Positions 6,871 through 13,118 of a stretch of 15,053 nucleotides of DNA are shown here, in pieces. A model generated the notes under the pieces. It worked only from the letters and a program-made list of their open reading frames with translations. It did not search any database and was not told the DNA's origin. Numbering within the stretch: the first letter of the stretch is position 1; the number at the start of each line of letters is the position of its first letter. This DNA comes from a virus: positions 222,392 through 237,444 of the IMG/VR virus record IMGVR_UViG_3300032053_000003; one strand, written 5' to 3'. The translations under genes were made by a program, and so were the position numbers.

Positions 6871-7179
6871 ATGAAAAAGATTTTCAAGTTTGTATTAGCA
6901 GGTACAGGTAAGAGTTATCCAACAGTAGTTGAAGTCCCCATGAATGTCGGTGCAAAGATCCTCAGTGTTGCTAACCAGCTGGAGAAGATCTGTATGTGGG
7001 CTGAAATTGAAACCACTACCCCTACAGAGACGAGGATCTTCAAGATTGTGCTTACAGGTGAGTCTTTTGAGACAGATGGTTTTGAAACCAGTTTTTTGGG
7101 TACCATGATCCTTAAGGGTGGTACATCTGTAGCTCACGTCTATGAGCTGATCGCCCCTGCTGTTTCTGAGGTTGTGTAG
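6871..7179 (+). CDS. hypothetical protein with internal sequence duplication (track ORF starts 6865; ATG 6871 has better SD spacing)
   Basis: SD agaggag. Two similar segments, KIFKFVLAGTGKS and RIFKIVLTGESFE, suggest a duplicated beta-hairpin unit. No recognisable domain. Confidence 0.5.
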   Translation: MKKIFKFVLAGTGKSYPTVVEVPMNVGAKILSVANQLEKICMWAEIETTTPTETRIFKIVLTGESFETDGFETSFLGTMILKGGTSVAHVYELIAPAVSEVV

Positions 7180-7241
7180 TCATTAAGGATCTGAAACCCA
7201 TTCCCAAGTTCTGGTGTGAAACCCATCATGAACATACATTG

Positions 7242-7284
7242 AAGAGGTAAGGTAGTCCTAGACTGCCTTACCTCTTGACTTTTC
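7242..7284 (+). terminator. intrinsic terminator: perfect 11-bp stem (aagaggtaagg/ccttacctctt), 13-nt loop, followed by gacTTTTc
   Basis: RC(aagaggtaagg)=ccttacctctt at 7242-7252 and 7266-7276. A T-tract follows. It lies 63 nt after the stop of gene 6871-7179. Confidence 0.55.
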
Positions 7285-7303
7285 AGGACAAAAAGTTTAC
7301 TAA
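7275..7303 (+). promoter_or_regulatory. candidate promoter TTGACT-N17-TACTAA overlapping the terminator stem; the predicted TSS coincides with ATG 7310 (leaderless)
   Basis: ttgact at 7275-7280, spacer 7281-7297, tactaa at 7298-7303. ATG at 7310 is 7 nt after the -10 box and has no SD (tttgttATG). Confidence 0.3.
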
Positions 7304-7309
7304 TTTGTT

Positions 7310-7576
7310 ATGGAAGTTAATTTGTCTAATGGGAGGACATATCTACGAAGCCAACTTTCCATGACCTTATTCGAGAGGATTCTCAACGATCAGGGTCTCC
7401 CAGTAAACTTTGATTTGTCTGTCTATGGTGTTGTCAAGCCTCATTCAGTCAGGCTGATTGAGAAGAGGTTTGGGAGATGGTTGAGGTATCATCAGCCTTC
7501 TATGTTTGAGGAGCAATACCGAGTATGGGCCAGAGGGAGGGAACAGGTTTTGAGGGAGGCTTCTGATGGATCTTGA
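7310..7576 (+). CDS. hypothetical protein (possibly translated from a leaderless mRNA)
   Basis: 88-aa ORF. No SD. A promoter-like element lies immediately upstream. Its stop overlaps the start of the next gene (ATGGATCTTGA). Confidence 0.45.
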   Translation: MEVNLSNGRTYLRSQLSMTLFERILNDQGLPVNFDLSVYGVVKPHSVRLIEKRFGRWLRYHQPSMFEEQYRVWARGREQVLREASDGS

Positions 7577-7886
7577 AAAAGGTCAGGTGATCATTGATTT
7601 TGATTTTCAGACCAACAGCTCTTTTATGAACACCCTGGAGTTCCTGTCTGTGGTAGCCCTCAAAGAAGCCTTTGATCAGTTAGTAGCTTATGGTGACATA
7701 ATAGCAGCAGTTATTGAGGTGAAGAAGGTTAAGCCGTTGTGGGTAGTAGTGAGGAGGACTTTACCTGATCCTCCACATGCTTCTCTTTCCCAGATGGCTC
7801 TGGAGGCTAAGATTAATTTAAGGGCAAGACAGTATCTGAATGATGATACTATAATCATATCTTTTATTCATGAGGATCTTCCCTAG
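7566..7886 (+). CDS. hypothetical protein
   Basis: 106 aa. Overlaps the upstream gene by 11 nt. Last gene of the rightward block before the strand switch. Confidence 0.45.
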   Translation: MDLEKGQVIIDFDFQTNSSFMNTLEFLSVVALKEAFDQLVAYGDIIAAVIEVKKVKPLWVVVRRTLPDPPHASLSQMALEAKINLRARQYLNDDTIIISFIHEDLP

Positions 7887-7920
7887 AGGCCAAGCACTCA
7901 ATTCATAAATGCTCTAACTT

Positions 7921-8121
7921 TTATTTAGCATCCTTTACAGTGAGGTCTCGTCTTACAACAAATTTCTTACACTTGGGACATTTATACTTACCTGCTCCAC
8001 CCCACGACCATGTTGAAATCGAGTGTGTGAAGCCACAGGTGCATTTGACTCTATAGAATGACTTTCCATATGCCTGGGGTGTATAGGATAGGATGACAGC
8101 CTTCTCAGTACTCATTATCAT
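7921..8121 (-). CDS. small zinc-ribbon protein (CxC ... CxxC)
   Basis: 66 aa. VKCTCGFTHS ... YKCPKCKKF. Last gene of the leftward operon. Confidence 0.5.
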   Translation of the reverse strand: MIMSTEKAVILSYTPQAYGKSFYRVKCTCGFTHSISTWSWGGAGKYKCPKCKKFVVRRDLTVKDAK

Positions 8122-8521
8122 TTCCTTCTGGGAAAGCTTCTTTAAAGCAGAACATATGATAGTCTGTCAGACCGGATATCTCAATCAGGTGCTTGTCTTT
8201 TGCACACTTAGTAGCAGGATAGCCACTTCCAAAGTCATGGCAGAATCCAAGGTCTGTGTTTATTGGAGATAGTGACCATACCCATGCACCTGCATCTTTG
8301 TAAGCTCTGATAGCTGATTGATCTCTGGAGATCTTTGCATTGTAGATACCTCCAGGGAAGGGTTGTTTAAAGCACTCCTCATAAAGCCTAGCTAATTTCT
8401 GGGCTAGATGAGTATTAGGGTTAGGTCTTCTTAGAAGAGCCCTGATGGGTTTTCTATTAAAGGGCATGAAGCATTTGTGGAAGCCTCCTACCCCTTCTTT
8501 GTCACATCTTCTACAATACAT
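8105..8521 (-). CDS. hypothetical protein with N-terminal Cys/His knuckle (CRRCDKEGVGGFHKC)
   Basis: 138 aa, ATG start. No recognisable domain. Confidence 0.5.
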   Translation of the reverse strand: MYCRRCDKEGVGGFHKCFMPFNRKPIRALLRRPNPNTHLAQKLARLYEECFKQPFPGGIYNAKISRDQSAIRAYKDAGAWVWSLSPINTDLGFCHDFGSGYPATKCAKDKHLIEISGLTDYHMFCFKEAFPEGNDNEY

Positions 8522-8527
8522 CGTTGA

Positions 8528-9025
8528 TCATTTACCCCTGAGACATATTTGACATACCTCGTTTATGTGGCATGTGGGTTTATCGGGATCTTCTTCACAT
8601 GACTGAGGTTCCCGTTCCTGCTCTATAATATCGACATGTTGTAATTCGCCAGTTTCTATTACATTTACTCCTAGCCATCTTTTATTAGGATTGGGATCAT
8701 GAACAACAAAACCTTCTTCGTCTATGATTACGCTATGGCCTGATTCTTCAAAGGTTCTACTTGGCACTGAGGCCAGAAAAAAACCATTGATGCTTTTATA
8801 ATTACGATCTTCTTTCTTGCTGTGTCGAGGACCCATTGAGGTTCCATAAAAATCATACCCAATACCCAAGAGAAAATGTCGGTATGGTTTAAACCATTTA
8901 CCTTCACTGCCAAACAATTTGAAATGAGGCACTTGCTCCAGCTGCAGATCAAATAGAGATGCAATGCAAGCCCTTTGGCAATCGCCTTTTCCTTTTTCAA
9001 CAATGCTCTGAAATATGGGTTTCAC
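8528..9025 (-). CDS. putative papain-like (C39-like) cysteine peptidase with C-terminal Cys4 cluster
   Basis: GTG start 5 nt after SD aggagag. GDCQRACIASLF (candidate nucleophile Cys at the N-cap of a helix) ... ESGHSVIIDEEGFVVHDPNPN (His followed by Asp/Asn) has the Cys ... His ... Asp/Asn order of papain-fold peptidases. C-terminus CEEDPDKPTCHINEVCQIC. The peptidase call is tentative. Confidence 0.45.
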   Translation of the reverse strand: MKPIFQSIVEKGKGDCQRACIASLFDLQLEQVPHFKLFGSEGKWFKPYRHFLLGIGYDFYGTSMGPRHSKKEDRNYKSINGFFLASVPSRTFEESGHSVIIDEEGFVVHDPNPNKRWLGVNVIETGELQHVDIIEQEREPQSCEEDPDKPTCHINEVCQICLRGK

Positions 9026-9026
9026 T

Positions 9027-9212
9027 TTACTCTCCTACTCCATTCTTAGTCTTTTTGTCTTCTCTCCACTCTTTCAAAAATTCTGTACAGAGGTCAGCAC
9101 AATCAGAGCATATACTTACATCAGGACCCATAATAAAGAATTCAGCCTCTTCATAGTACTGTCCACAGAAAGAGCAATAGTGAGTAGGCAATCCCTGATC
9201 AGCAATGTTCAC
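9027..9212 (-). CDS. stand-alone ClpX-type C4 zinc-binding domain (zf-C4_ClpX) protein, 61 aa
   Basis: HYCSFCGQYYEEAEFFIMGPDVSICSDCADLCTEFLKEW aligns with E. coli ClpX residues ~13-50, [39 protein letters not shown]. Matches are YCSFCG, GP.V.IC..C.DLC and all four Zn Cys. GTG start overlaps the upstream TGA (GTGA). Confidence 0.8.
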   Translation of the reverse strand: MNIADQGLPTHYCSFCGQYYEEAEFFIMGPDVSICSDCADLCTEFLKEWREDKKTKNGVGE

Positions 9213-9463
9213 TTTTTCCCATTACTTGGTTTCTTTCTTATTGGACAATAATCTTTTTTAGCAGGGTCATCTGAGCAGATGCCCAAATACTCGCAGTCAC
9301 ACATTCGTTGACGAGCCGATAAAGATTCATGTTCGGTCAGTCGATTGTCAAGCTCAAAGATAACGTCAATAAAAGATTTTTCAAAATCGTTTAGTGTCCT
9401 CCCAAGGTTAACATAATCAATTAATTTCCTTAGTTTGTTTACCTTCATACTACAATCTTTCAT
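9209..9463 (-). CDS. hypothetical Cys-cluster protein (track ORF starts at TTG 9484; first ATG is at 9463, second at 9448)
   Basis: C-terminus CDCEYLGICSDDPAKKDYCP. The N-terminal region holds a tandem 15-nt duplication that creates two SD+ATG units (MKDCS-MKDCS). Confidence 0.5.
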   Translation of the reverse strand: MKDCSMKVNKLRKLIDYVNLGRTLNDFEKSFIDVIFELDNRLTEHESLSARQRMCDCEYLGICSDDPAKKDYCPIRKKPSNGKK

Positions 9464-9480
9464 ACTACAATCCTTTTCTC

Positions 9481-9768
9481 TCAATGTCTACCTCTGGAGT
9501 TCCAGGTCTTGATAGCTTCATCAGGATTGAGACCACTTGCCATGACCAAAAAATATGGATAGTGGTCTGGGTTTGTACACCTAATAGTCCAGTAACCCTT
9601 GAGGGAATCCTCTAGTACGAGTTGATCTTTTTTGCCACAGACAATACACTCTTTGGTATTCTGAGTGATGCCATAGGCTATGGGCATATCATGGTAATCA
9701 ATTGCTGACAGGGGAGCAACAAGGATCAAGAGAAGGGTTATAACAATAATGTTATATTTGAGATGCAT
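9481..9768 (-). CDS. Lar-family (restriction-alleviation-like) zinc-ribbon domain protein with N-terminal signal peptide / membrane anchor
   Basis: SD aaggagctaagATG. N-terminus NIIVITLLLILVAPLSA. C-terminal domain KECIVCGKKDQ ... GYWTIRCTNPDH ... EAIKTWNSR fits the Lar_restr_allev pattern (CPFCG ... GY.v.C..C ... EAI.aWN.R). Confidence 0.6.
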   Translation of the reverse strand: MHLKYNIIVITLLLILVAPLSAIDYHDMPIAYGITQNTKECIVCGKKDQLVLEDSLKGYWTIRCTNPDHYPYFLVMASGLNPDEAIKTWNSRGRH

Positions 9769-9769
9769 C

Positions 9770-10039
9770 TTAGCTCCTTATTTTACCATATCTGGATTTG
9801 AGAACCTTGCATTTGTTGTCTTTTATAGAGATATAGAGGATTAATCCGTGATGTTCTATATCTCCTGGGGCTATTTTGAAATCACAGAGGGTGAGTTCCC
9901 CAAAGCTCTTATCAATCGATTTACGAATATCTGTTTCGTTCAGGATTAATACAGTACTTATTTCCATCATTTTAAGTCCTTTGTGGTGTTGATATTTGAG
10001 GAACAGATATACCCACCCAACAATCCCACTAGGCACCAA
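9770..10039 (-). CDS. hypothetical small protein (start uncertain: TTG 10039 or ATGATG at 9970 with SD aaagga)
   Basis: ORF track only. The likely 66-aa form is MMEISTVLILNETDIRK.... No recognisable domain. Confidence 0.45.
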   Translation of the reverse strand: MVPSGIVGWVYLFLKYQHHKGLKMMEISTVLILNETDIRKSIDKSFGELTLCDFKIAPGDIEHHGLILYISIKDNKCKVLKSRYGKIRS

Positions 10040-10066
10040 TCCTCAGGATCTCCATTCCTCCTAACT

Positions 10067-10744
10067 CTAATCTGCCTTTATTGGATTTTTTAGATCCTTT
10101 GTCTGTGCTATTATATGCAAAATCCGCAATTCAAGATCGGCATGATCAGGAGCCTTTATTATACCACGTCCAATCAAATTAGGATGATAATGCTGAGCAA
10201 CCTCTCCCTTCATTTCATGTCTAGTTCCAAATAAATGTCTACAATTAGAAACATTTGTTGATTGTCCACAGATCATAGTTATTGCTTCTACTTTCTCCCA
10301 GGATTGAAGTTCCTTTGGAAGTTCGTATGCAAATATATCTCCCTGTCTTTTACTGCCTTCCATTCCAAAGGCTCTTTCACATGATGCTATTACATCAGGT
10401 TTTATTTCTTCATAAAAATTTCCCTTCTGCCATACTCTAAACCATTCCCACTTCACTAGTTCTACCAAAAAGGGCATTTCATCAGTCCCTCCAAACCAGG
10501 CATCGTATTGATCGTCCCCATTGTTTGCATTTTGTGTATATTCTACATTATTCAAGTACAAAAATTGGCTAAAATCATCATTGAGTTGGAGTATTCTTGC
10601 TTTCTTGTCAACAGGTAATACTATAAGTTCCTTATCTCTTACAGGAGTTTTTACCTTATCATTATATTCAATGATAGCTTGACCTGCCTTTTTTAACGGT
10701 CCAGATGATTTCTTATAATAAAGTTCAGGATATTGCTTATTCAT
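10067..10744 (-). CDS. hypothetical protein, 225 aa (largest in the leftward operon)
   Basis: SD aaaggagaaatatATG. Several conserved-looking segments (WFGGTDEMPF, KRQGDIFAYELP, ICGQSTNVSNCRHLFGTRHEMKGE). No family recognised. Confidence 0.6.
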   Translation of the reverse strand: MNKQYPELYYKKSSGPLKKAGQAIIEYNDKVKTPVRDKELIVLPVDKKARILQLNDDFSQFLYLNNVEYTQNANNGDDQYDAWFGGTDEMPFLVELVKWEWFRVWQKGNFYEEIKPDVIASCERAFGMEGSKRQGDIFAYELPKELQSWEKVEAITMICGQSTNVSNCRHLFGTRHEMKGEVAQHYHPNLIGRGIIKAPDHADLELRILHIIAQTKDLKNPIKAD

Positions 10745-10773
10745 ATATTTCTCCTTTACTTCCTAAGAATACA

Positions 10774-10795
10774 GGGGGACCCCGAAGAGTCTCCC
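10774..10795 (-). other. stable RNA hairpin with UUCG tetraloop in the intercistronic spacer of the leftward transcript
   Basis: Minus-strand RNA 5'-GGG A GACUC UUCG GGGUC CCC-3'. Eight base pairs including one G.U, an A bulge and a C(UUCG)G loop. It sits between the stop of the Gly-rich gene (10802) and the SD of gene 10744. Confidence 0.45.
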
Positions 10796-10801
10796 ATTGG
10801 C

Positions 10802-11125
10802 TTAATTCTTTTTAAGCTTCTTGTATACAAAGTTGGCACCTAATCCCACAACTACCATACCGAGGATAGCCCACCCTACAACAGGTATAGATCCAGAAAG
10901 TACAAGAGAGGTTACTCCTCCTGCCATACCTGTACCACCTGCTGCCATAGAGCCACCTCCAGCTGCTGCCAAAGCTGTAGTGGTTGTCACCGCACTAGCC
11001 CCAGCACCACCAAGGGCAGTCACTGTGGCTGCATGAGCAATGGAAACCCCCACACAAGCCCCACCAGCCAAACCTATTCCTGCTCCTGCTGTTGTAACAG
11101 CTACTTCGTCATTAGGCATATTCAT
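10802..11125 (-). CDS. Gly/Ala-rich small membrane protein with glycine-zipper-like repeats and a C-terminal TM helix
   Basis: SD gaagggag. The ATG overlaps the TGA of the upstream peptide gene (ATGA). AGAGIGLAGGACVGVSIAHAATVTALGGAGASAV...GGGSMAAGGTGMAGGVTSLVLSGSIPVVGWAILGMVVVGLGANFVYKKLKKN. Local GC is well above the window background. The + strand shadow ORF 10821-11036 is a by-product of this composition. Confidence 0.55.
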   Translation of the reverse strand: MNMPNDEVAVTTAGAGIGLAGGACVGVSIAHAATVTALGGAGASAVTTTTALAAAGGGSMAAGGTGMAGGVTSLVLSGSIPVVGWAILGMVVVGLGANFVYKKLKKN

Positions 11126-11241
11126 TTTGCTACTCCCTTCAAGACTGTGAGGATGACCCTTACGTCTCTTCCACCAATACCAAGGACTGCTGTGGTTATA
11201 GGGATAGCAAATAATGTAGTAAGCACCTTCTTAAATTTGGA
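11122..11241 (-). CDS. 40-aa hydrophobic peptide, translationally coupled to the Gly-rich membrane protein (track ORF 11122-11310 is over-extended)
   Basis: Strong SD caggaggtaacagtcATG at 11241. MSKFKKVLTTLFAIPITTAVLGIGGRDVRVILTVLKGVAK. First gene of the leftward operon. Confidence 0.5.
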   Translation of the reverse strand, partial: SKFKKVLTTLFAIPITTAVLGIGGRDVRVILTVLKGVAK

Positions 11242-11744
11242 CATGACTGTTACCTCCTGAAACGATATTTTCCAAAAGGGTAGCCATATATAAGTACCTC
11301 TGTCAACCATAAAATGAGAATATCTTAATTAATATCAGTTACTTACTTTCATATTTTGAACGAGCCTCTTTCCACATCTATTAAAATTAGCTCAAAATAG
11401 TAGACCTCGACAGTAGCCCATAGGGAAGACCTTAAGCCTGATAGGGATGGATTGCAAGTAGAAAATGTTAATCATACCTTAGATTGCTACGTTTAAGGGG
11501 GTAGTGTTTCTAGCTAACTTTTGACTAACTTAGCTTGGAAGGTTAGAAGGTGATCTAAGTTGTGTAAAAGAGGCAAGTAGAATCTAGTGTGAAACCTAAT
11601 TTGATTTTTCAAAAAGTTCATCACCCCTTATTATACTGGTATGATAAATATCACATACCATTTTGCTGTAACAAATTGATTTTAAAATTAGTTCTTGTCT
11701 TTATCTATAATGCTGAAATACAATCTTAGGTAGATACATAATAT
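11242..11744. promoter_or_regulatory. ~500-bp non-coding divergent control region between the leftward and rightward operons
   Basis: No ORF longer than 60 aa with an SD. AT-rich flanks. Contains a TATAAT box at 11706-11711 (about 35 nt before start 11745), the direct repeat ctaactt-ttga-ctaactt (11513-11530) containing TTGACT, and two copies of gcaagtagaa (11455 and 11574). Confidence 0.4.
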
Positions 11745-13118
11745 GTGGTGTTTGATCTCGGTTTTCTTAATAGATGGGGTTTTAAATTGAAGAAGCAACC
11801 AGAGAAGATGAAGACTAGTAGGGAATGTGACTATGCTTCAATCATAAGAAAGGGGAAGGGCAGGTACAAGTACGATTTCAAAGCATTGGAATACAAGGTT
11901 CAACAAAGTTACGAAAGATTCCTACAGAACCAGAAGGACTCAGAGAGTTTTCAGCAGCTATATGAGAGTGTGTTCGTTATAGCCCATGGGGTGTTAGAAA
12001 CTACCCAGCAGTGGGTTAAGAGAGAAGGACTCATAAGTGCAGATGTGGCTCACGAGTATGCAACTGGACTGATAGAGAGGATTTTGGAAGGTAGATGGAG
12101 AGCCAAGCTCAATGCAGGAGAAGACAAGTTTGGATGGGTGCCCTATATCCGATTAAATATCAGAAATACGATTCACACAAAGTTCTCTACTCAAAACCCA
12201 GAAAGGTATATTTCGTTAGACGATCTGAAAGAGATTACAAAGGAACACAGTACCGATCCTGAGGATAGCAATTATCTATTACATCCTGCCCTGATAGATG
12301 CTGAGGCTTTCCACTTTACTGAGGTGGAAACGAACAACAATCAGCTTGCTTCCCAGTGTTCAAAGTACCTAAAGCTTTTGTTCACTGAGGAACGGTACTA
12401 TTTACTCACTTCCAAGCTCCTTTCTCTCAAGGCAGAGAGCTACAATAACATACAGGATCTTGATCTACAGCTGTTTGTAAAGACTTCACTGGTGCTATTC
12501 AAACGTCTTTATGAATCCTACAATCTAAGCCAGATCAGCAGCACTAGGGTAGACAAGGTGTTTAATAGTTCTCTGTACCTTGCCTCTATCCTGTCTTCAG
12601 ATAGGGATAAGAGGTTATATGTTTCATTGGATCTGGCTAATTTATATCGGTTAGCTCTTGCTTATGGGGGTGAGACTCTGAGGGTCCCTACTTTGGAAGA
12701 GCTGGAGGAGTTGGTTAGTACAGCCAAGGTCAGTTATGAGATCCTATCTTCAAATCTCGATGACCTCAATAAAATCAGAAGAATCAGGGATAAGGTCAGG
12801 GATGACTACGATGTCTTTGTACGGTTTGATAAACTTGCAGACAATGTAAAGGGGGTTTTCAGGTATCTGTCTACTGAGATAACAGATCCTTCAACTACGG
12901 AAACCTCATTGGTTGATTCACTTCTTACATTGTCAACTAGGTCGGACCAGATCATCAATAAGATACTGGATAAGATGGAGAATACTATCAATACGGTTGA
13001 AGATAGTGACGAGCTTATCAAAGTATACAAGGAAATGGTGGAGAATCTTAATTTATCACTCAATCTTATGACTAATATTAAGAACCTGATGGAAGCTAAG
13101 TTTAAAGAAGTTAAGTAG
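11745..13118 (+). CDS. large protein with weak sigma-factor-like region 2 and region 4 motifs (candidate phage transcription factor); start is GTG 11745 or ATG 11806
   Basis: DVAHEYATGLIERI...KFGWVPYIRLNIRNTIHTKF is comparable to sigma70 region 2 (DLIQEGNIGLMKAV...KFSTYATWWIRQAITRAI). LYRLALAYGGETLRVPTLEELEEL...KIRRIRDKV is comparable to region 4.2 (LRLRFGLDDGRPRTLEEIG...RIRQIEAKALRKLR). First gene after the long control region. The sigma assignment is weak. Confidence 0.55.
   Translation: MVFDLGFLNRWGFKLKKQPEKMKTSRECDYASIIRKGKGRYKYDFKALEYKVQQSYERFLQNQKDSESFQQLYESVFVIAHGVLETTQQWVKREGLISADVAHEYATGLIERILEGRWRAKLNAGEDKFGWVPYIRLNIRNTIHTKFSTQNPERYISLDDLKEITKEHSTDPEDSNYLLHPALIDAEAFHFTEVETNNNQLASQCSKYLKLLFTEERYYLLTSKLLSLKAESYNNIQDLDLQLFVKTSLVLFKRLYESYNLSQISSTRVDKVFNSSLYLASILSSDRDKRLYVSLDLANLYRLALAYGGETLRVPTLEELEELVSTAKVSYEILSSNLDDLNKIRRIRDKVRDDYDVFVRFDKLADNVKGVFRYLSTEITDPSTTETSLVDSLLTLSTRSDQIINKILDKMENTINTVEDSDELIKVYKEMVENLNLSLNLMTNIKNLMEAKFKEVK

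Follow-up and report, generated by a model that had tools for sequence, protein, structure and literature searches.

A stretch of viral DNA from the IMG/VR record IMGVR_UViG_3300032053_000003 (15,053 nucleotides, the whole of which is called the window below) encodes on its minus strand a protein of 61 amino acids (aa), which is a stand-alone C4 zinc-binding domain (ZBD) of the ClpX type. Two short beta-hairpins and a helix at the C-terminal end make up the predicted domain, and a short Lys-rich tail comes after it. An initial annotation of this DNA had placed a 61-aa open reading frame (ORF) at 9027-9212, and the frame was found at exactly these coordinates, on the minus strand, in the ORF list. 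The full product is MNIADQGLPTHYCSFCGQYYEEAEFFIMGPDVSICSDCADLCTEFLKEWREDKKTKNGVGE. The gene and the parts of its product are the following.

9027..9212, minus strand: stand-alone ClpX-type ZBD gene, 61 aa, with a GTG start at 9210-9212 and a TAA stop at 9027-9029
9069..9179, minus strand: ZBD proper, residues 12-48, delimited by the Pfam match, the alignment to PDB entries 1ovx and 2ds5, the column comparison and the AlphaFold2 model
9174-9176 (C13), 9165-9167 (C16), 9108-9110 (C35) and 9099-9101 (C38), minus strand: putative zinc ligands, in a CxxC...CxxC arrangement
9168-9170 (F15, equivalent to F16 of Escherichia coli ClpX) and 9078-9080 (F45, equivalent to I46), minus strand: pocket residues, assigned by alignment
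9030..9068, minus strand: Lys-rich C-terminal tail WREDKKTKNGVGE, residues 49-61, outside the domain

Domain identity, predicted fold and selection

Residues 12-48 matched the Pfam family PF06689 (zf-C4_ClpX) with an E value of 8.7e-12 and 45.2 bits, the gathering score of this family being 27 bits, and the match spanned model positions 2-39 of 39. When the PDB was searched with phmmer, the top matches were the E. coli ClpX ZBD structures 1ovx and 2ds5 (E about 3e-9), while full-length ClpX chains were matched at their N-termini only. Both searches agree with the initial annotation, in which the protein had been described as a ClpX N-terminal C4 ZBD with no AAA+ module. The second half of that description was borne out by the NCBIfam clpX equivalogs, against which the protein scored 36.3 bits (TIGR00382, cut-off 370.75) and 32.9 bits (NF003745, cut-off 359), the match being confined to model positions 5-54 of about 414-418. 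Since the equivalogs were matched at the N-terminus only, and at 36 bits against 370, the AAA+ module with its ClpP-docking IGF loop is absent from the 61-aa protein.

The alignment columns of the protein were compared with those of 348 tandem units, 13 ClpX ZBDs and six phage copies. All the near-invariant columns were found to be retained (C,S,F,C,G ... I,G,P,V,I,C ... C ... L,C), and the core signature CSFCG...GP.V.IC..C..LC is present. The pocket residues F16 and I46 of E. coli ClpX are retained as F15 and F45, and the conserved hydrophobic core residues of the C-terminal helix are retained as well. A single-sequence AlphaFold2 model of the 61-aa protein reached a predicted local distance difference test (pLDDT) score of 68.9, which corresponds to moderate confidence. 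Strands were predicted at residues 10-12, 19-21, 25-27 and 33-35, and a helix at residues 36-56. With this model as the query, Foldseek returned the ZBD crystal structures 2ds6, 2ds8 and 2ds5 as the best PDB matches, with target-normalised template modelling (TM) scores of 0.58-0.65. Towards the tail the pLDDT drops to 58 and then to 43 in the last blocks, and this end is predicted to be of low confidence or disordered. Basic tails comparable to it are present in the 65-aa homologue P0003, in the phage P88 protein and in P0142.

The likeness to the E. coli ClpX ZBD thus lies in the C4 signature, the spacing, the predicted hairpin-plus-helix fold and the pocket residues, with 47% identity over 34 core positions. 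The differences are found in the missing AAA+ module, in the hairpin, which is discussed below, and in what follows the domain: in E. coli ClpX the ZBD is followed by a linker, and in the window protein by the Lys-rich tail.

An identical 61-aa product was predicted by external gene callers on six contigs from several samples. Two diverged homologues were also recovered, P0002 (54 aa, 91% identity) and P0003 (65 aa, 71% identity). Comparison of the window gene with that of P0002 revealed 12 synonymous and 4 non-synonymous changes in 43 codons, giving a ratio of non-synonymous to synonymous rates (dN/dS) of about 0.05. This low value indicates a constrained gene rather than a decaying clpX fragment. 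The GTG start is supported by an N-terminal motif, ADQ(G/D)LP, which stands ahead of the first Cys and is conserved in P0003. Judged by these substitutions, the ZBD gene is a genuine, selectively maintained phage accessory gene under strong purifying selection. A pseudogene remnant of clpX was considered and ruled out by the dN/dS, the conserved length, the conserved N-terminus and the lack of AAA+ sequence downstream.

Stand-alone and tandem relatives

Four PHROG families, which consist of short phage proteins and have no curated cut-off, matched the window protein, namely 12435, 6797, 5259 and 3680, with E values of 4e-9, 1.2e-8, 4.5e-6 and 1.4e-4, respectively. The best of them, phrog_12435, has a profile of 65 positions and bears the label 'protease'. 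When phage records were searched with tblastn, stand-alone ZBDs were found in the Pseudomonas phages PP9W2, BUCT566, phi1, PSA04, phPA-G and Alize, in the E. coli phage P88 and in the Caulobacter phage Cr30. These copies resemble the window protein in having one ZBD and no ATPase, in their similar size and in their location among small accessory genes. They differ from it in sequence (about 45-53% identity), in lineage and in context, which can be a nin region, the vicinity of an integrase or a T4-like genome.

The PP9W2 copy (65 aa, annotated 'Clp protease ClpX') is located in the nin region and adjoins a DksA/TraR-like gene. The Alize copy (109 aa) adjoins an integrase. In P88 the protein (AIZ95127; KP063541.1 10195-10527, locus L008 2327-2659) has 110 aa with the ZBD at its C-terminus, and was mis-annotated as 'carboxylate-amine ligase'. 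The P88 and Alize proteins carry extra helical extensions, unlike the window protein. Over the 34 core positions, the P88 ZBD displayed 82% identity to the E. coli ClpX ZBD, which looks like a recent capture or a constraint to mimic the host domain. The names 'Clp protease' and 'carboxylate-amine ligase' on phage ZBDs are a case of annotation carry-over. Stand-alone phage ZBDs are already in the databases under carried-over names, and the window protein adds a member to this group and is not unique.

In Cr30 (KF301602.1; locus L009, about 1950-2174) the annotated 41-aa coding sequence AGS81055.1 begins inside the ZBD. The open frame reaches upstream Met codons that would give about 62-72 aa with the whole CSFCG...C..C domain, and the start as deposited is probably mistaken. 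In some jumbo phages a full-length ClpX is encoded instead, as was found for Bacillus phage G (gp257/gp258) and Sinorhizobium phage Phosso. In phage G the full-length ClpX gene adjoins gp257, a ClpP-like protease gene.

A search of 1.84 billion representative proteins gave 2,892 matches at E <= 1e-3. Among the best 148 representatives (P0004-P0151), two ZBD units were present in 112, with a median length of 132 aa; three units were counted in 16 and four in another 16, while one, five and six units occurred in one protein each. None of the ten tandem-ZBD representatives checked against Pfam contained the ClpX AAA+ module, and two of the ten were fused to TPR repeats or to Hsp70 and Sel1. These tandem ZBD-only proteins, from bacteria and metagenomes (2-6 units, about 90-300 aa), thus share with the window protein the same domain and the lack of AAA+, with about 35-56% identity per unit. 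The difference is that they have at least two units per chain, most often two, so that a pseudo-dimer mimicking the ZBD dimer may arise within a chain, whereas the window protein has a single unit and would need to homodimerise. Full-text literature searches revealed no study of stand-alone, phage or tandem ClpX zinc-finger proteins; the mentions of the domain that were found consisted of a table of cyanobacterial sigma-factor domains and a virome paper in which a contig was discarded because of the domain.

Scans of IMG/VR and GTDB genomes gave full-length ClpX genes and one unrelated 807-aa ORF (L024). The ClpX genes, which belonged to Firmicutes, Clostridia and Bacteroidales, had the 8-mer DVSICSDC in common and showed identities of 45-60%. 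Since no lineage stood out in this range, host inference from ZBD similarity was dropped. Four IMG/VR contigs (L010-L013; 3300046777_001350, 3300010354_001066 and others) are classed as viral and encode near-identical full-length ClpX proteins of about 399 aa, whose genes may belong to phages or to host fragments. Their ZBDs contain the DVSICSDC motif, as the window protein does, and are 49-54% identical to it.

Possible function of the free domain

The best mechanistic guess, a tentative one drawn by analogy, is that the free ZBD serves as a decoy, vying with the ClpX of the host for adaptors or substrates that depend on the ZBD. The initial annotation had likewise suggested that a free copy could soak up adaptors. 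Like the E. coli ZBD, the 61-aa protein would fold around one zinc ion and form a homodimer. The homodimer would present the hydrophobic peptide-docking pocket that ClpX uses, and this pocket would bind adaptors of the SspB, RssB or CpdR type and ZBD-dependent substrates of the lambda O or MuA type. Produced in excess during infection, the protein would bind adaptors or degrons in trans and withhold them from host ClpXP. As a result, a subset of phage or host proteins would be stabilised, for example a replication protein or labile antitoxins, while ZBD-independent degradation would carry on. Free ZBD reportedly blocks the degradation of lambda O and MuA as well as SspB-assisted degradation, findings attributed to Wojtyra et al. 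2003 and Thibault et al. 2006.

Several properties of the E. coli system are consistent with such a mechanism. The E. coli ZBD self-dimerises, and ssrA-tagged substrates continue to be degraded by a ClpX that lacks it (PMC7226468). Purified E. coli ZBD added in trans at 5-20 uM was described to inhibit the breakdown of sigma-S, mediated by RssB, by 0.6 uM ClpXP (PMC7226468). Residues F16 and I46 of E. coli ClpX contribute to a hydrophobic pocket to which lambda O, trigger factor and adaptors bind; there is overlap between this pocket and the lambda O site, and trigger factor, SspB and RssB make use of it (PMC7804408). Phage inhibitors of host AAA+ proteases are also established, namely T7 gp4.5 and T4 PinA acting on Lon and lambda RexB acting on ClpP-dependent proteolysis, and such inhibition serves in part to block protease-dependent toxin-antitoxin defences (PMC10286901). 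The window protein resembles PinA, gp4.5 and RexB in its proposed outcome, a small phage protein blunting ATP-dependent proteolysis of the host, for instance so that phage proteins are protected or antitoxin turnover is blocked. No sequence relationship to them was detected, and their mode of action differs from the proposed one in that they bind the protease, whereas the window protein would be a decoy copy of the docking domain.

The decoy explanation was favoured on several grounds, the identity of the domain among them. There is the in vitro precedent of ZBD acting in trans, and the pocket is preserved as F15 and F45. Stand-alone ZBDs recur in unrelated phages, the window gene is under purifying selection, and phage protease inhibitors provide a precedent. 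The P88 copy resembles the ClpX ZBD of its host, as is expected of a mimic.

A number of observations weigh against a decoy directed at ClpXP. The pair R25/K26 of the hairpin (E. coli numbering), which is usually basic, is replaced by E24/F25 in the window protein and followed by aromatic residues; the further hairpin changes are L27 to F26, A29 to M28 and K19 to Q18. The homologue P0003 has E/Y/W at the corresponding positions. The altered hairpin surface could shift the ligand specificity, judging from the alignment. Given the retained pocket and the changed hairpin, the ligand surface is therefore similar to that of the ClpX ZBD and not identical to it. Identity to the ClpX ZBDs recovered was about 47-59% over the 34 core positions, in a comparison set that is biased by the way it was found. 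The window protein is no closer to ClpX ZBDs (median 50%) than to tandem units outside ClpX (42% in the median and 56% at most). The domain is widespread outside ClpX, in tandem ZBD-only proteins and in fusions to TPR or to Hsp70/Sel1, and homology alone therefore does not tie the protein to ClpXP. Finally, the inhibition in vitro took a large molar excess of ZBD (PMC7226468). As to the origin of the domain, ClpX and non-ClpX tandem ZBDs are about equally distant from the window protein.

The same observations bear on a second explanation, which was judged rather unlikely, though the least so of the alternatives: that the protein is a generic protein-protein interaction module with the ZBD fold, recognising a short peptide motif in another protein of the phage or of the host and having no link to ClpXP. 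In one variant, given here as a possibility, it would be a targeting or regulatory partner of a co-expressed phage protein such as the product of the downstream gene, a predicted C39-like peptidase. Of the best 148 relatives in a non-redundant set, 147 are proteins of 2-6 units without the ClpX AAA+ module, and some are TPR or Hsp70 and Sel1 fusions; such varied non-ClpX architectures indicate that the ZBD fold is a reusable module. The atypical hairpin surface of the window protein and the translational coupling of its gene to the peptidase gene point in the same direction. However, the residues of the pocket that serves ClpX ligands are retained, and the P88 copy is nearly identical to the ClpX ZBD of its host. 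In addition, the pairing with the peptidase is not conserved across relatives. No ZBD was present nearby in three loci, on contigs of 100-247 kb, that encode close homologues of the peptidase, and the ZBD genes of P0002 and P0003 have other neighbours, namely a gene with an HD domain and an uncharacterised gene in convergent orientation. A conserved partnership between ZBD and peptidase was therefore rejected, and the peptidase gene is regarded as context and not as a partner.

A free ZBD might alternatively heterodimerise with the ZBDs of host ClpX, which was the first option in the initial annotation, and so act as a poison subunit that breaks the trimer of dimers on the hexamer or as a docking factor that tethers something to it. 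ClpX would in this way be inhibited or reprogrammed directly. The ZBD is a dimerisation domain (PMC7226468, PMC7804408) and the hydrophobic core residues of the helix are retained in the window protein, in agreement with this proposal. It is nevertheless improbable on several counts. On established knowledge, the ZBDs within the ClpX hexamer are already paired and their local concentration is very high, which would disfavour an exchange with a free homodimer. As ClpX without the ZBD degrades ssrA substrates (PMC7226468), any effect would concern ZBD-dependent clients only. A tail of 13 residues is too short for cargo, and identity to any of the ClpX ZBDs recovered is only about 50-59%. Heterodimerisation with ClpX is thus less likely than a decoy for adaptors or substrates.

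It is more doubtful still that the protein is akin to DksA/TraR or Lar, a small regulator with a C4 zinc ribbon that acts on transcription or nucleic acids and does no more than resemble the ClpX finger. Weak matches to TraR were obtained in the PDB (6n57_M, E 0.12) and in NCBIfam (E 0.01, 15.9 bits against a cut-off of 108), the PP9W2 ZBD gene adjoins a DksA/TraR-like gene, and the neighbours of the window gene encode small zinc-ribbon-like proteins. The match to the ClpX ZBD is, however, better by 8-10 orders of magnitude and covers the whole model. The TraR scores lie far under their cut-offs, the diagnostic ClpX-type signature is present, and Pfam DksA/TraR gave no match to the window protein at E values up to 1.

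The least probable explanation is a split phage ClpX, of which this protein would be the ZBD half, partnered by an AAA+ unfoldase that lacks the ZBD and is encoded in another part of the 230-kb genome: some jumbo phages do encode a full ClpX, with or without ClpP (Phosso, phage G), and about 34.5 kb of the 230.8-kb contig was examined, but this part contained the present ZBD alone and no gene for a ClpX-like ATPase or ClpP, and stand-alone ZBDs occur in small temperate phages (P88, of 36 kb; Alize, of 39 kb; PP9W2, of 54 kb) with no ClpX-like ATPase in the 3-5 kb annotated around them, which suggests that a phage partner ATPase is not needed.

The decoy explanation has implications beyond this phage. 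ClpXP governs decisions that matter to phages: it degrades lambda O, remodels MuA, and turns over sigma-S (via RssB) and antitoxins such as Phd (general knowledge; PMC10286901, PMC7226468). In the literature searched, no report was found in which a phage employs a copy of the docking domain that belongs to the unfoldase itself. It is conceivable, and put forward with less assurance than the decoy mechanism itself, that stand-alone ClpX ZBDs are a recurrent counter-measure of phages of many lineages, acting as a decoy or possibly as a targeting partner against ClpXP, and that the bacterial double-ZBD proteins are endogenous anti-adaptors. If this were true, phage replication proteins would be stabilised, or protease-triggered defences such as toxin-antitoxin abortive infection would be blocked. 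It would be a new, simple and selective way of re-programming a host AAA+ protease. It would also supply a ready-made tool to block degradation that depends on adaptors, and a clue to what thousands of bacterial tandem-ZBD proteins do. Better test systems than the metagenomic phage of the window would be cultured phages whose hosts are known, namely P88 in E. coli, PP9W2 and Alize in Pseudomonas aeruginosa, and Cr30 in Caulobacter. P88 is the most tractable of them for the decoy question.

Genomic setting and neighbouring genes

The ZBD gene lies within a leftward gene cluster, whose features are the following.

7921..11244, minus strand: leftward cluster of ten tightly packed or overlapping genes, from the ORF list and external gene calls
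8528..9025, minus strand: downstream gene, 165 aa, with its start codon two bases past the ZBD stop and translationally coupled to the ZBD gene
9209..9463, minus strand: upstream Cys-rich gene, 84 aa (91 aa from an alternative TTG), with a TGA stop that overlaps the ZBD GTG
11245..11744, strand not assigned: non-coding region of about 500 bp before a rightward 457-aa gene, presumed to be a divergent control region

In the order of transcription, the products of the cluster have 40, 107, 225, 89, 95, 84, 61 (the ZBD), 165, 138 and 64/66 aa. The ZBD gene is the seventh of the ten, and the last six genes all encode Cys-rich motifs. As a description, the setting given in the initial annotation was correct: there are six consecutive leftward Cys-rich genes, and about 500 bp of non-coding DNA adjoin the cluster. 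That such an arrangement is typical of host-takeover genes, as was also proposed, is to be taken as an analogy only. At its upstream end, the GTG start of the ZBD gene overlaps the stop of the 84-aa gene (GTGA), which suggests translational coupling of the two genes. At the other end, 1 base separates the ZBD stop from the GTG start of the 165-aa gene. The sole Pfam signal of the 84-aa protein was a sub-threshold one to HTH_Tnp_Tc3_1. The ZBD and six neighbouring proteins gave no match in PADLOC-DB at E <= 0.01.

The 165-aa product, which is unrelated to ClpX and has a Cys-rich C-terminal tail, is predicted to be a C39-like cysteine peptidase of the papain fold. It belongs to phrog_5845, and Cys16, His97 and Asp110 were found to be invariant across 33 homologues. 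An AlphaFold2 model based on a multiple sequence alignment reached a pLDDT of 90.5. The tblastn matches in the phages YerA41 and AbbyDaisy are annotated 'C39 family peptidase' or 'cysteine protease'.

The non-coding region at 11245-11744 contained no Rfam family and no tRNA, and matches to sigma-70-like promoters (on both strands) and terminator-like sites were not above the shuffled expectation. An imperfect direct repeat of 22 nt (11598-11619 and 11673-11694, 77% identity) was found in it, along with several short inverted repeats. The first gene of the cluster (11122-11244, minus strand) encodes a 40-aa hydrophobic peptide and is preceded by a strong AGGAGG ribosome-binding site. The second (10802-11125, minus strand) encodes a 107-aa Gly/Ala/Thr-rich, membrane-like protein. 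Neither product had a match in any family library searched. The 95-aa protein (9481-9768, minus strand) has a hydrophobic N-terminal segment, similar to a signal or transmembrane segment, and a sub-threshold match to the Lar zinc ribbon PF14354 (E 0.0037, 17.9 bits against 28.6).

The window lies on a 230,776-bp contig (ENA ERZ27247916, k141_351042), to which it is 100% identical over its length. Megablast of positions 7000-12000 against 50,697 phage records gave no match, which indicates that there is no close cultured relative. From its gene content, the contig looks like a large tailed phage. The window also encodes an SLT transglycosylase, an endolysin-like protein with PG_binding_1 and an FkbM methyltransferase, and its flanks encode HU, a RecA_N-domain protein, helicases, intein-containing proteins and an ART-PolyVal domain. 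For one neighbouring gene, relatives were located on contigs of 100-247 kb with a T4-type Gp23 capsid gene. Two Intein_splicing proteins of about 775 aa, one of them also with MJ0330_N, are encoded just outside the window (locus L036, 10599-12926 and 16730-19066), and an ART-PolyVal domain protein sits between them. These genes fit a large phage genome rich in mobile elements.

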